A DNA stretch of 11,911 bases from Promethearchaeota archaeon. GTDB taxonomy: Archaea > Asgardarchaeota > Lokiarchaeia > Sigyniarchaeales > SOKP01. Made by a program: the position numbers and the translations under genes. The notes beneath the pieces were generated by a model, which was given only the letters and a program-made list of their open reading frames with translations, searched no databases and was not told the origin of the DNA. The stretch covers positions 1 to 11,911 of the forward strand of contig JBHLNT010000127.1 of NCBI GenBank assembly GCA_048941265.1. The letters run 5' to 3'. Shown piece by piece: positions 1,856 through 10,985 of the stretch; position 1 is the stretch's first letter; each line of letters begins with the position of its first letter.

Positions 1856-1993
1856 TCCCGATCATAGGATCCTCTTAAGTTTAATTGATATGTCATTAAA
1901 TTTTTGTTTTTATCTTAAAATAGTAAAAAATATGAATTAAAAAATATTTCTTAACCCACTTAATATTTACATGACATTATTGAGTGATACTAT

Positions 1994-3472
1994 TTGTTAA
2001 ATAATCATATCGTTGACTTGTTTCTTAATCCCAAATCTGTAGCGGTGATAGGCGCTTCGAAGAATCTAGTGAAAGGAGGCAACCGAATTGTTCATAACCT
2101 CACACTTAATAATTTTAAAGGAAAAATTTATCCTGTAAATCCTACTGCTAAAGGCGACATATACGGTTTAGAATTCAAGAAATCAGTTCTGGACATTGAA
2201 GAAGAAGTGGATCTTGCTATTTTTTACGTAGGCAATAGACTTATTCCGGGATTATTGGAAGAATGTATCAAAAAAGGAATTAAAGGGGCATTAATTGAAG
2301 CCTCGGGATTTGAAGAGGTAGGGAAAAAAGGTCTTGAACTTAGAGATAGGATTGTCGAAATCACAGACAATTTTTCAAAAATTAGAATTGTTGGACCAAA
2401 TTGCATGGGTCTCACGAAAATAGATGGAGACAGTAATAGTGAAGATAAGGGAGGATTTTTCTCTGGATTTGGGGTTTTTGAAAAATATAAAAGAGGGAAT
2501 ATCGCAATCGTCAGTCAATCAGGTATGCTGAACGGTGGATATCTTATGCATATAATGCAAAAATATCCCGAACTTGGTTTTAGATATTCATGTTCTATTG
2601 GAAACAAAATGGACTTAAGTGAAATAGAGTTTCTTGAATACTTTTTAGATGATCCAACCGTTAATGTTATAGCTGTATATTTGGAATCGTTCAGAGATCC
2701 GAGAAAGTTCATAGAATTAAGCAGAAAAGCAAAAAAAATTCCTAAAAAAACAATTATTTTAGTGAAAGGAGGTTTAACATCCCAAGGGCAAAAGGCAACA
2801 TTAAGCCATACTGGAGCTCTAGCAGAAAATTCACAACTACTCGAAGCTATAATCAAGCAATCGGGGGTAATACAAGCTAATAGCTTTGATGAACTATTTC
2901 AATTCGCTAGGACATTTTCAATGGTATACGAAACTGATAAAAAATTACCAAAAAAGGGTGGTGTCTCTACGATTGTAGGTTCGGGAGGGGCTGGTACGCT
3001 AATAGCAGATCTTACAATGAAATACGGATTACATCTTCCGATTTTAGGAGAAAAATCATATCAAGCGCTTGTAGAAGTCTTTCCTGAATGGATGCCTCCA
3101 AATAGATTTAGTCTCGTTGATATTTGGCCAGCTATGGAAAAAGCGATGATGGAGAGAAAAGGTCGAGATGAAGTTATGAAAGCCGCTTATGAAGCAGTAT
3201 TGAGTGAACCAGAAGTAGAAGGGCTCTTCAATATGATGTTTTGTTCTAGACGCTTTAGAAGCATGTGGAATATCCCGAATCTGATAAAAAATACTAAAAA
3301 GATTTCAAAACCGATTTTTTTCTATCTTATAGGAGAAGCTAAGGAAGTTCGGTATCTTTCAGAATTACTCGGAAATAGTAATATCCCATGCTTTACTGAG
3401 TTGGAAGATATGATTAAGAATTTCTGGATATTGGTTCAAGAAGCTAAAAACGATATAGTTAACCTAACCTAA
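1994..3472 (+). CDS. NDP-forming acetate/acyl-CoA ligase alpha-subunit-like protein, paralog 2
   Basis: Same motifs (PKSVAVIGAS, GPNCMG, SQSG, SHTGA), collinear with 374..1855. TTG start with SD-like GAGTGA at 1982-1987. Confidence 0.9.
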   Translation: MLNNHIVDLFLNPKSVAVIGASKNLVKGGNRIVHNLTLNNFKGKIYPVNPTAKGDIYGLEFKKSVLDIEEEVDLAIFYVGNRLIPGLLEECIKKGIKGALIEASGFEEVGKKGLELRDRIVEITDNFSKIRIVGPNCMGLTKIDGDSNSEDKGGFFSGFGVFEKYKRGNIAIVSQSGMLNGGYLMHIMQKYPELGFRYSCSIGNKMDLSEIEFLEYFLDDPTVNVIAVYLESFRDPRKFIELSRKAKKIPKKTIILVKGGLTSQGQKATLSHTGALAENSQLLEAIIKQSGVIQANSFDELFQFARTFSMVYETDKKLPKKGGVSTIVGSGGAGTLIADLTMKYGLHLPILGEKSYQALVEVFPEWMPPNRFSLVDIWPAMEKAMMERKGRDEVMKAAYEAVLSEPEVEGLFNMMFCSRRFRSMWNIPNLIKNTKKISKPIFFYLIGEAKEVRYLSELLGNSNIPCFTELEDMIKNFWILVQEAKNDIVNLT

Positions 3473-5673: not shown

Positions 5674-7110
5674 TCATAATAAAGTGATGAGAACGTCCAT
5701 AGCATCCAAAACTTTCTTCCCTTCTTCAGTTATAAAATATAAAACTTTTTTTCCCTCTTTTTTTCGATGTATCAATTTTTTTAATTCTAATTCTTTAAGA
5801 TGCTGATAAATGGCCGGTAAACTCACCGATCCTATTATTTCCTTAAGTTTAGTCCCATGAATTCCTTTTTTATTTGAAATAGAAATTTGAGATAATATTT
5901 TCAATTTGGTGCTGAGAATTCCACCCATTCCGGCAGTCTTTGCCTTGGAAGATAAGGCTTCTAACACATAGGGCGCTTTTAATCCACTTCCCGTAATTAA
6001 ACACACTACTTTATCATCAGGATTCATGTTATAATGTTGAATTAGGCTAGTTAGAGCTCCAATGGTTAAAGCTGACGCAGGTTCAGCAAAAATTCCCTCA
6101 TATCTTGCGAGGTCTCCTATAGAACTAAGCATTAAATTTTCAGGAATTGCTAATGCTGTTCCCTTACTCTCTTTTATTGCCTTTATAGCTGCTGCTTGAT
6201 ATAATGGATTTTTAACCATTATAGATCTTGCCTTAGATTGTAAAATATTTTTTTCCTCAATATTTCTGACCTCCTTATGAAGAAATTCATTTACAATTGG
6301 AGCACACACTTCCGATTGTACTCCAACTAGTTTTGGTATCTTTTCAATAAAACCTGATTCTTTGAGTTCTGAAAAACCTTTCCAAATACTAACAAGACAT
6401 CCACCATTCCCCATTGGAATTATAATCCAATCTGGAATGTTAATTTCCTTATAAATTTCAAAAGCTATCGTTTTTTGAGCTTCAATTGTAAGTGGATTGA
6501 ATTCGGGTGTGCATTGATAATAATCTTTATTATATTCAGGGGCTAATGCTGAATTTATAGCATCATCAATAGTATCACCCTCAATAATGATTTTAGAGTT
6601 ATAAGCAATAAGTTGAGCTTTTTTACCAATTTCAATTTCACTTGGAATAATATTTATACTTTCCATCCCTTCTAAAGAAGTATATGCTGCAATTGAAGCA
6701 CCTTGATTTCCATTTGAAGCACAGATTACTTTTTGAAAATCCCAGCTCCTAGCATGGGAAATTAAAAGAGCAGCTGCCCGATCTTTAAATGAATTAGTAG
6801 GATTATGCGTTTCATCTTTAAAAAATAGTTTATTTAACTCTAAGTTTTTGCCAATTCTATTTGATTCTCTACAAGGAGTTCCACCCTCTCCTAAAGTAAC
6901 AAAGAATTCTTTTTTTATTTGAGGCATTGTGAAATAAAAATCCCAAAATGAGTCATATTTTTTTATTGGAGAAAAATTTTCTTTTATTTTTGCTATATCG
7001 GTTTTAATCCAGAGTAAACCTCCACAATCTGAACATTTGTACTCAATTGAAGTGATTTCAAATTCTTTATTACAATTTATACATATGAATGTGAGTGAGG
7101 ATCGAATAAT
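5674..7110 (-). CDS. thrC: Zn-ribbon / threonine-synthase-like PLP enzyme (fold II) / C-terminal winged-HTH fusion; probable ATT start
   Basis: Core motifs TLGEGGTP, KDETHNPTNSFKDR (PLP Lys), PMGNGG, GVQS, EPASA, TGSGLK. Frame stays open upstream of ATG 6927 to TAA 7129-7131, encoding CINC...CSDCGG. C-terminus SLPAIYQHLKELELKKLI...VLYFITEEG is wHTH-like. Start position is inferred. Confidence 0.8.
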   Translation of the reverse strand: MIRSSLTFICINCNKEFEITSIEYKCSDCGGLLWIKTDIAKIKENFSPIKKYDSFWDFYFTMPQIKKEFFVTLGEGGTPCRESNRIGKNLELNKLFFKDETHNPTNSFKDRAAALLISHARSWDFQKVICASNGNQGASIAAYTSLEGMESINIIPSEIEIGKKAQLIAYNSKIIIEGDTIDDAINSALAPEYNKDYYQCTPEFNPLTIEAQKTIAFEIYKEINIPDWIIIPMGNGGCLVSIWKGFSELKESGFIEKIPKLVGVQSEVCAPIVNEFLHKEVRNIEEKNILQSKARSIMVKNPLYQAAAIKAIKESKGTALAIPENLMLSSIGDLARYEGIFAEPASALTIGALTSLIQHYNMNPDDKVVCLITGSGLKAPYVLEALSSKAKTAGMGGILSTKLKILSQISISNKKGIHGTKLKEIIGSVSLPAIYQHLKELELKKLIHRKKEGKKVLYFITEEGKKVLDAMDVLITLL

Positions 7111-7298
7111 TAAACTGCCTCTTAATTTTTATAAATCGAAAATGAAAAATAAAACATAATTTCTTTTCTTTATCAATTTTAAAAAAAACTTTTTTGACTT
7201 TTATATTTTTGACATTATAAAAATAAATACTGTATCTAAGTAAACTTCATAAAAAATATTTCATATATCTATTAAAAGAAAAGAACCATTGAAAAAAT

Positions 7299-9581: not shown

Positions 9582-9614
9582 ATAAAATAATTAACTCTTT
9601 GTTTTTTAAAAATT

Positions 9615-9649
9615 ATGAAAATTTAATGTGGAAATGAAAATTTAATGTG
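9615..9649. repeat. Perfect 16-bp direct repeat ATGAAAATTTAATGTG x2 (19-bp period)
   Basis: Copies at 9615-9630 and 9634-9649, between convergent racemase and aIF1 genes. Confidence 0.85.
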
Positions 9650-9666
9650 TTTAGATACCCTTCTTA

Positions 9667-9987
9667 CTAGCTTTCTTTTATAAATATTTTATCCTCGTCG
9701 TAACCTAACTTTACTAATAACCCTTTTAATTTAAAACGGTGATCGCCTCTGATTTCTACACTATTATCTCTTACCACTCCCCCAGAACCAAGTTTTTTTT
9801 TAGCTGATTTCAAAATTTCTTGTAAATTAGCATCAAAATTTCCTTCAAAAGTGATAAGAGTAACAATTTTTCCCCATTTTCTTGTGTCATTAGAAATAGT
9901 TATTACTTGTTCATCTGCGCTTAAATCACTACACACACATAAATCTTTTGGAAGCCCACATAAACTACAGATCGCTTCTTCTTTAAT
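9667..9987 (-). CDS. sui1: Translation initiation factor aIF1 / SUI1, probable non-canonical ATT start
   Basis: IKEEAICSLCGLPKDLCVCSDL...RKWGKIVTLI...KKKLGSGG.V..N.VEIRGDHR..LK.LL...GY. The ORF-track GTG (9936) is the Val inside CVC. An in-frame TGA at 9997-9999 caps the frame with no ATG/GTG/TTG in between. Confidence 0.9.
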   Translation of the reverse strand: MKEEAICSLCGLPKDLCVCSDLSADEQVITISNDTRKWGKIVTLITFEGNFDANLQEILKSAKKKLGSGGVVRDNSVEIRGDHRFKLKGLLVKLGYDEDKIFIKES

Positions 9988-10178
9988 TTTGTATTTTCAC
10001 AACCTTTTGATTATTTAATGTTATTACTTATATTACTATATATTTATCTTTTATTTATATAATCTATATTTCTTTTCCTTTATATATAAAATTTATAGTC
10101 CAAATAGAGTTTTGTATAATTAATTTCTTTCATTTAATTTGATCAATATTATATTGATTAGATGCAATAATGAATTAA

Positions 10179-10985
10179 TTGAAGACTAATTTAAGAATTG
10201 ATCCTTCCTTAAGAATGATTGAAAGTTTCAAATTTTCTGCACATAGGGGTTATAAAGATAAATCAATTGAAAACACAAAAGAGAGTTTTTTAAAAGCTAT
10301 TGAGGAGGATCTTGATTATATAGAATTAGACATCCGAAAAACTAAAGAAAATATCCCAATTGTATTTCATGATAAAAAATTAAATCGCATGTTTAATAAA
10401 AAGAGAGCTAAAATCGAAAATTACTCACTCAAAGAATTAAAAACATTAGCATATAAAGATGGTCAGAAAATTCAAACCCTTGAAGAAGTACTTTTAATAC
10501 TCAAAGGTAAAATTAAAATTATTATTGATATTAAAATTGAGGGATTGGAATCAAAAATTATTCAATTAATTAAAAAATACAACCTCATGAATGATGTTAT
10601 TATTCAGAGTAAAAGGGGAGAGATAATAAATAATTGTTATAGAATTACTCCTTCATTAGAATATTCTCTTTATCGTGGTTACTTAGGTAAAATGTGGGCC
10701 TTTGGTGATATTTTAAAAATTCATAAAATTTTAGCCCCAATTTGGTATTATGTAAAGGTTAAACCATATCATATTAATTATATCAATTTGGATGGACCTT
10801 ATATTTATGATGATTTAATAATGACATGCCATTCTAATGGACTAAAAATTATACTGGGATCTTGGAATGTAAAAAAATATGTAAAATATGTTAGAAAATG
10901 GAATGTTTATATTATTAATTCTAATGACCCTAAAAAAATTAAAGAATATCTAAATTATTATAGAAAAAATGGATTTTTAAAATAG
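10179..10985 (+). CDS. Glycerophosphodiester phosphodiesterase (GDPD) family protein
   Basis: SAHRG, ENT.ESF.KA, DYIELDIRKTK...IVFHD..L.R, TLEEVL, IIDIK. Start either TTG 10179 or ATG 10215. Confidence 0.88.
   Translation: MKTNLRIDPSLRMIESFKFSAHRGYKDKSIENTKESFLKAIEEDLDYIELDIRKTKENIPIVFHDKKLNRMFNKKRAKIENYSLKELKTLAYKDGQKIQTLEEVLLILKGKIKIIIDIKIEGLESKIIQLIKKYNLMNDVIIQSKRGEIINNCYRITPSLEYSLYRGYLGKMWAFGDILKIHKILAPIWYYVKVKPYHINYINLDGPYIYDDLIMTCHSNGLKIILGSWNVKKYVKYVRKWNVYIINSNDPKKIKEYLNYYRKNGFLK

Follow-up and report, generated by a model that had tools for sequence, protein, structure and literature searches.

A probable AUU start codon and possible self-limitation of translation initiation factor aIF1 in a Loki-type Asgard archaeon

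The aIF1 locus

The window, meaning the whole 11,911-nt stretch of DNA analysed here, carries on its minus strand the aIF1 (SUI1) gene of a Promethearchaeia (Loki-type Asgard) genome (Table 1). Profile searches find aIF1 as a single copy in this 5.0-Mb, 361-contig genome. The frame that follows the in-frame TGA matches Pfam PF01253 (SUI1) at 48.5 bits, above the cut-off of 25.5, and NCBIfam NF002096 at 97.7 bits, 0.3 short of the cut-off of 98; in the whole-genome search the latter scores 96.9, again below the cut-off. Like the solved M. jannaschii aIF1 (PDB 4mo0), the protein carries the ICxxCGLPxxLCVC knuckle within an alignment spanning query residues 5-103 (E 2.5e-22). Because this alignment pairs query residue 5 with chain residue 3, the zinc knuckle is part of the solved aIF1. 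The other genes of the window are intact under translation table 11.

Table 1. Coordinates of the features at the aIF1 locus and of other genes of the window
Feature	Position	Strand	Remark
aIF1/SUI1 CDS, as inferred	9667-9987	minus	106 codons from ATT, plus stop TAG 9667-9669
ATT, inferred start codon of aIF1	9985-9987	minus	six codons upstream of first Cys
In-frame TGA	9997-9999	minus	closes the aIF1 frame three codons upstream of ATT
ATC (Ile just before first Cys)	9970-9972	minus	only other near-cognate start candidate
GTG (Val of C-V-C)	9934-9936	minus	first canonical in-frame codon of aIF1; gene callers' pick
Zinc knuckle C-x2-C-x6-C-x-C, ICSLCGLPKDLCVC	9931-9969	minus	aligned with M. jannaschii aIF1 (PDB 4mo0), residues 3-17
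Shine-Dalgarno-like motif AAGGTTGTGA	9997-10006	minus	last three bases are the in-frame TGA
Spacer AAATACAAA	9988-9996	minus	9 nt between motif and ATT, non-coding
Mini-ORF GTG AAA ATA CAA AAT TAA	9983-10000	minus	out of frame; read as by-product
TTG-TGA	9997-10002	minus	in-frame start-stop
A+T-rich intergenic region	10007-10178		shared with divergent GDPD gene; presumed promoter
GDPD gene	10179-10985	plus	divergent from aIF1; Pfam match
PLP-dependent enzyme gene	5674-7128	minus	Pfam PALP from residue 77
First tandem paralogue	314-1852	plus	CoA-binding and Succ_CoA_lig domains; acetyl-CoA synthetase (ADP-forming)-like
Second tandem paralogue	1988-3469	plus	same domains and likeness

Read directly, the minus strand runs AAAAGG TTG TGA AAA TAC AAA ATT AAA GAA GAA GCG ATC TGT AGT TTA TGT GGG CTT CCA AAA GAT TTA TGT GTG TGT, with no ATG, GTG or TTG in the aIF1 frame between the in-frame TGA and the zinc knuckle. 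This confirms what an earlier note on this DNA had claimed, namely that aIF1 lacks a canonical start before its knuckle, in both the minus-strand reading and the coordinates. Because the first in-frame ATG, GTG or TTG is the GTG of the C-V-C segment, an ORF listing with canonical starts yields only an 89-aa aIF1, which loses three of the four knuckle cysteines.

Conservation of the start codon

The window's own family, f1, supplies 35 aIF1 copies with the Cys knuckle from other assemblies, three of them second aIF1 copies within a genome. At the position of the window's ATT, these copies have ATT in 29, ATC in 3, ATA in 3 and ATG in none; the ATG in close orthologues that the earlier note named as a refutation did not turn up. 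From the upstream stop to the first Cys, 28 of the 35 are free of in-frame ATG, GTG and TTG; in the remaining 7, the sole canonical codon is the GTG inside the ribosome-binding motif, brought into frame by an 8-nt spacing. An in-frame stop lies one to three codons upstream of AT[TCA] in 28/35 copies, five with a single intervening codon. The earlier note had proposed AUU initiation 9 nt behind the Shine-Dalgarno-like GGTTGTGA with a 106-aa product, and the orthologue comparison supports this well: every copy has a near-cognate codon at this position, and the distance from motif to start is 9 nt in 27 copies and 8 nt in 7.

Within the knuckle, the four cysteines are kept in 35/35 copies with variation between TGT and TGC, and the proline is kept in 35/35 with all four Pro codons in use. 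The codon at the position of the window's internal GTG is GTG in 3 copies, ATG in 1, and ATA, ATC, ATT, GTA, GTT or GTC in the other 31. Since Cys and Pro are invariant amid synonymous variation and GTG occurs in just 3/35 copies, translation includes the knuckle and does not begin at the internal GTG, and a near-cognate start becomes unavoidable. At the level of sequence comparison, protein-level selection on the zinc knuckle is demonstrated.

Downstream of the ATT, f1 copies encode K, N or S followed by three acidic residues. The K-[DE]3 stretch between the ATT and ATC codons is open in all 35 copies and resembles the acidic stretch that follows an ATG or GTG start in other families, which makes the ATC the less likely start. 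On this comparison, aIF1 very probably starts at the AUU and would yield a 106-aa product with the full zinc knuckle. The tryptic peptide beginning at the inferred Met would read M/-KEEAICSLCGLPK.

The ribosome-binding motif and the leader

The core GTG[AT] of the motif is present in 34/35 f1 copies, 23 of which carry exactly AAGGTTGTGA; one copy has AGGAAGGA in its place. The spacer sequence is not conserved, and 8/35 orthologues have an extra in-frame TAA or TAG within it. The second aIF1 copies L154, L155 and L163 (genomes G144, G125 and G084) show a perfect GAGGTGA, an 8-nt spacing and an ATT or ATA start.

The 16S rRNA is found neither in this genome nor in the congeners G001 and G005, so the anti-Shine-Dalgarno sequence is taken from three relatives, one of the same family (G016) and two of the same order (G032, G038), in which the 16S 3' end reads GGATCACCTCC. 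With this end, GGTTGTGA pairs at 6/8 positions and has two mismatches. RNA genes are poorly represented in this assembly as a whole: besides the 16S rRNA that was not found, aragorn detects just 12 tRNA genes in the 361 contigs, the majority containing introns, and among them no tRNA-Met.

Motif k-mers peak before the ATG starts of this genome, which points to ribosome-binding motifs in use. GTGA stands most often 6-7 nt before the ATG (43 and 33 of 1561), with 18/1561 at 9 nt; the 9-nt spacing of aIF1 is thus longer than the genome mode. Motif, spacing and codon of aIF1 are all sub-optimal, which fits a deliberately weak site without proving one. An Rfam search of the leader and intergenic region returns no match, and the leader folds no better than its shuffles (z 0.26). 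A search for RNA runs that contain the locus lists none.

Starts of aIF1 in other Asgard families

Sampling of aIF1 gives matches in 36/41 related genomes and in 117/121 genomes of the phylum sample. From these, 140 aIF1 loci were read and the 129 with a Cys knuckle classified; the other 11 (L004, L167, L169-L177), which lack a Cys knuckle or are truncated at the edge of a contig, were left out. With classes outside f1 assigned by eye from codon position, the start is near-cognate (ATT, ATC, ATA or CTG) in 54/129, ATG in 48/129, GTG in 20/129, TTG in 3/129 and ambiguous in 4/129. A strict automatic test finds 45/129 knuckle-bearing genes without any canonical codon before the knuckle. By family, these are 28/35 in f1, 2/8 in f2, 2/2 in f6 (CTG), 8/21 in f9 (CTG), 1/1 in f11 (ATA), 1/3 in f16 and 3/3 in f17 (ATA).

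Families f5, f7, f9, f12, f14 and f26 have a GTG or ATG at a distance of 5-6 codons upstream of the first Cys, which points to positional homology. In f7, f9 and f26, GTG sits at the same distance from the first Cys as the window's ATT and is followed by the same acidic stretch, and in f5, f14 and part of f7 an ATG stands five codons before the first Cys. The equivalent codon in the sister family f2 is ATA in 3 copies, TTG in 3, ATG in 1 and GTG in 1. In f9, one codon alternates between GTG (9) and CTG (8) behind AGGAG.

Near-cognate starts elsewhere in the genome

Near-cognate starts are a general feature of this genome. Upstream of first canonical codons, a correctly spaced 5-mer ribosome-binding motif precedes ATT, ATA, ATC, CTG and ACG 1.4-3.4 times as often as the background of 1.1%. 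After the upstream stop, 564 of 5024 ORFs of at least 100 codons have at least 30 codons without ATG, GTG or TTG, and about half of these stretches are coding-like. A rough estimate puts near-cognate starts at 3-8% of ORFs of at least 100 codons. Of 20 candidates in which a near-cognate codon follows such a motif, no fewer than 10 show a Pfam match that already starts, from profile position 1-4, ahead of the first canonical codon and directly behind the ribosome-binding motif plus ATT, ATA, ATC or CTG. These genes encode SMP-30, an alpha/beta hydrolase, a TFIIB zinc ribbon (a TFIIB paralogue), polyprenyl synthetase, a GPN-loop GTPase, SDR, a Ras-like GTPase, a DEAD helicase (Hel308-like), a hexapeptide protein and DUF7065 (contigs C190, C221, C247, C274, C277, C286, C301, C321 and C40; loci L182-L195).

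The aIF1 gene fits this lineage pattern: a near-cognate codon stands 4-9 nt after a 16S-complementary motif, and the N-terminus is conserved upstream of the first canonical codon. Because near-cognate starts are found genome-wide here, the ATT start is not unique to aIF1 and represents one case of a lineage habit.

Other genes of the window also have open codons upstream. The PLP-dependent enzyme gene has 67 open codons before its first ATG, a CxxC...CxxC zinc-ribbon-like stretch without ATG, GTG or TTG, and an ATT ATT at 7110-7105 after AAGAGGC is possibly another near-cognate start. In the first of the two tandem paralogues, 20 open codons precede the first canonical start.

Two genes serve as controls. 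The GPN-loop GTPase has an ATT start in this genome; across 25 f1 loci its start is ATT or ATA in 17, ATG in 7 and TTG in 1, and in f2 it is ATG in all 4 readable loci. In six genomes the GPN start is ATG or TTG while the aIF1 start is still ATT or ATA. The gene for aIF1A starts with ATG in 29 and TTG in 2 of the 31 genes read in the 41 relatives, and the 30 best-scoring phylum loci have TTG in 21 (f9, f10, f26), GTG in 5 (f20) and ATG in 4; a near-cognate start is needed in 0/61. At the aIF1A loci (L068-L097, L312-L341), the ATG starts in the window's order have no visible ribosome-binding motif and are possibly leaderless, and the TTG (f9, f10, f26) and GTG (f20) starts sit behind GGAGG-type motifs.

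A cross-genome proxy counts coding-like stretches of at least 30 codons without ATG, GTG or TTG in 200 kb from each of 8 genomes and in this genome; frameshifted genes and spurious ORFs push the counts up, which makes it a crude measure. It gives 0.6% for G104 (f9), 0.1% for G067 (f17), 3-8% for subsamples of this genome and 6.7% for G064, whose aIF1 starts at ATG. Across these nine genomes, the aIF1 start type and the extent of near-cognate use show no connection by this crude proxy. The raw share of ORFs with long start-less leaders is 9-19% in all sampled genomes and is uninformative alone. Judged by codon identities, aIF1 does appear special within the habit: ATG occurs in 0/35 copies while GPN reverts, and near-cognate starts recur in seven families with different codons, including families in which the habit is low. 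The mere conservation of a weak start, on the other hand, is not peculiar to aIF1.

Proposed self-limitation of aIF1 synthesis

In the proposed mechanism, the imperfect Shine-Dalgarno motif GGUUGUGA, whose last three bases would form the in-frame UGA by chance, would place the 30S subunit, and initiator Met-tRNA would start at the AUU nine bases downstream. The product would be the 106-residue aIF1 with its full N-terminal zinc knuckle, a factor expected to destabilise initiation complexes on near-cognate codons. More aIF1 should accordingly depress initiation at its own AUU and less aIF1 should favour it, and the outcome would be a self-limiting loop of aIF1 synthesis.

The biochemical footing comes from other archaea. 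According to PMC4705826, a 30S complex with Sulfolobus aIF1 binds AUG mRNA and not AUU mRNA, and, going by PMC4705826 and PMC6237735, 30S binding by aIF1 and its discrimination against non-AUG codons are known for Sulfolobus and Pyrococcus only. The IF3-like autoregulation of aIF1 put forward in the earlier note would follow from this reported action of Sulfolobus aIF1 and is weakened by the genome-wide use of ATT, ATA, ATC and CTG. In a lineage tolerant of many AUU and AUA starts, aIF1 may discriminate poorly, which would weaken any loop. By this reasoning, functional feedback of aIF1 on its own AUU start would be the mechanism that suggests itself most readily; it is plausible, somewhat short of probable. 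The statement as a whole, an AUU start together with self-limitation of aIF1, may be judged slightly more probable than its negation.

The main alternative accepts the AUU start as real and regards it as one of the lineage's many weak starts, which would set a low, fixed aIF1 output with no loop of consequence. Near-cognate starts behind ribosome-binding motifs throughout the genome, the retention of ATT or ATA by the GPN-loop GTPase in 17/25 family loci and the missing correlation between aIF1 start type and genome-wide near-cognate use all agree with it. Against it, aIF1 has ATG in 0/35 copies and GPN in 7/25; aIF1 uses CTG or ATA even in families with almost no such habit, as seen in the 200 kb sampled from G104 (f9) and G067 (f17); and aIF1A has a near-cognate start in none of its 61 genes. 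Moreover, any discrimination by aIF1 against AUU would produce some feedback automatically. A fixed weak start of this kind is a serious possibility, yet on this evidence a doubtful one.

Other readings of the start region

The motif region also contains a mini-ORF and a start-stop, and the earlier note had suggested that either could give coupling, reinitiation or a +1 shift. Ribosomes might start at the out-of-frame GTG 9998-10000 and then reinitiate at the overlapping AUU (AUUAA), or they might use the TTG-TGA. Both elements are present, and their recurrence speaks for such a route: a 5-codon ORF with a stop overlapping the aIF1 start is found in 23/35 f1 copies and an in-frame TTG-TGA in 22/35. 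The GTG, however, lies inside the ribosome-binding motif itself and so has no motif of its own. The layout is also lost in other copies, since the ORF has 14 codons in three ATC-type copies, an earlier stop in L020, a GTG in the aIF1 frame in the 7 copies with 8-nt spacing and no GTG in L018. As a mechanical outcome of GTGA, 9 nt and an ATT followed by A, gone in the ATC and 8-nt variants, the mini-ORF and TTG-TGA look like by-products. The elements noted earlier are real, and the regulatory role suggested for them is not supported; reinitiation is very improbable.

A +1 shift finds no support either. The uORF stop is preceded by AAT, TAT or CAT; the three ATC variants lack this stop, and 7 copies have the GTG in the aIF1 frame, a pattern unlike that of a prfB-type frameshift. 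A +1 slip is implausible, since AAU, UAU and CAU in the P site could not pair again with AUU.

A start at the internal GTG, which would give an 89-aa aIF1 without the zinc knuckle and make the upstream motif a relic, has in its favour that this is the first canonical codon and that a public gene call of that length exists (P0005), and it can be set aside almost entirely, given a GTG in just 3/35 orthologues, which counts against the true start at GTG 9936 that the earlier note had allowed for, four cysteines and a proline kept invariant through synonymous changes, and a knuckle that belongs to the solved M. jannaschii aIF1.

The remaining readings invoke readthrough or recoding of the TGA (TTG-TGA-AAA), or blame the lack of a start on an assembly error or a pseudogene; they deserve equally little credence. 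Two ENA gene calls read MWKYK, with TGA as W (P0001, P0003). TGA readthrough is all but excluded because 8/35 orthologues have further TAA or TAG stops on the way from the TGA to the ATT, so the TGA is not the sole interrupting stop that recoding would call for. Contigs from two of four public runs span 9600-10150 without insertion or deletion, so the 1-nt indel raised in the earlier note did not appear over the start region; as these runs are only possibly from the source sample, they exclude an indel weakly. The intact state of the window's other genes under table 11 speaks against decay or error as well, and because the same arrangement recurs in 35/35 family copies from other assemblies, the missing canonical start is neither an assembly slip nor chance.

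Consequences for public annotation

NCBI lists 106-aa proteins (P0002), one of them from a close relative, that start MKEEAIC at the ATT position; calls starting there are named 'stress response translation initiation inhibitor YciH'. Public calls for this aIF1 clade disagree with one another, reading TGA as Trp (P0001, P0003), truncating the protein at the internal GTG (P0005) or starting at the ATT position (P0002). Gene callers cut aIF1 to 89 aa or read TGA as Trp, and therefore the clade's public aIF1 sequences are partly wrong.

Relation to known systems and significance

In bacteria, infC (IF3) is autoregulated through its AUU start codon. In eukaryotes, eIF1 is reportedly autoregulated through an AUG in poor context, a finding attributed to Ivanov et al. 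in 2010. PMC6237735 mentions eIF1 autoregulation solely as a eukaryotic parallel.

The aIF1 arrangement shares features with both. As in infC, the gene of a factor that rejects non-canonical starts itself begins at AUU behind a ribosome-binding motif, and conservation keeps this codon weak (near-cognate in 35/35 f1 copies). The folds of IF3 and aIF1 are, however, unrelated, and for aIF1 the loop is a predicted one. Moreover, AUU and AUA starts are very rare in E. coli, whereas many other genes of aIF1's lineage use them. The likeness to eIF1 is closer in descent: aIF1 is the eIF1 orthologue, and in both cases a weak initiation site lies on the fidelity factor's own mRNA. The eukaryotic signal, however, is the Kozak context of a true AUG on a scanned mRNA, whereas in aIF1 the signal is the codon, placed by a ribosome-binding motif. 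Compared with the other ATT-, ATA- and ATC-start genes of this genome, aIF1 has the same codons, the same kind of motif and the same gene-caller failure. It differs from them in that aIF1 is expected to police such starts, has no ATG in 35 copies, and carries CTG or ATA also where the habit looks rare.

Full-text literature searches turned up no report of a non-canonical start or of autoregulation for archaeal aIF1, and none of near-cognate starts in Asgard archaea. Two reviews (PMC7531240, PMC6412873) do not mention AUU, autoregulation or feedback. Bacteria (IF3, AUU) and eukaryotes (eIF1, poor AUG context) tie the amount of a fidelity factor to the stringency it enforces, and no such tie is described for archaea in the papers searched. 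Asgard archaea are the closest relatives of eukaryotes known, and a weak start on their aIF1 opens the feedback question to direct testing. The finding also connects to the unexplained abundance of AUU and AUA starts in Loki-type genomes.

A broader idea is that Asgard aIF1 has repeatedly come under a weak start, in seven or more of the 21 families for which a gene could be classified, as a self-setting stringency thermostat. The start would be AUU, AUC or AUA in A+T-rich lineages and CUG or GUG at about 49% G+C. Loki-type aIF1 would be held low enough to express a set of AUU- and AUA-started genes, whose output would be tied to the aIF1 level. This extension is speculative and, as a whole, unlikely. 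If it were true, the thermostat would stand in archaea where eIF1 autoregulation stands in eukaryotes, and might be the forerunner of the latter.
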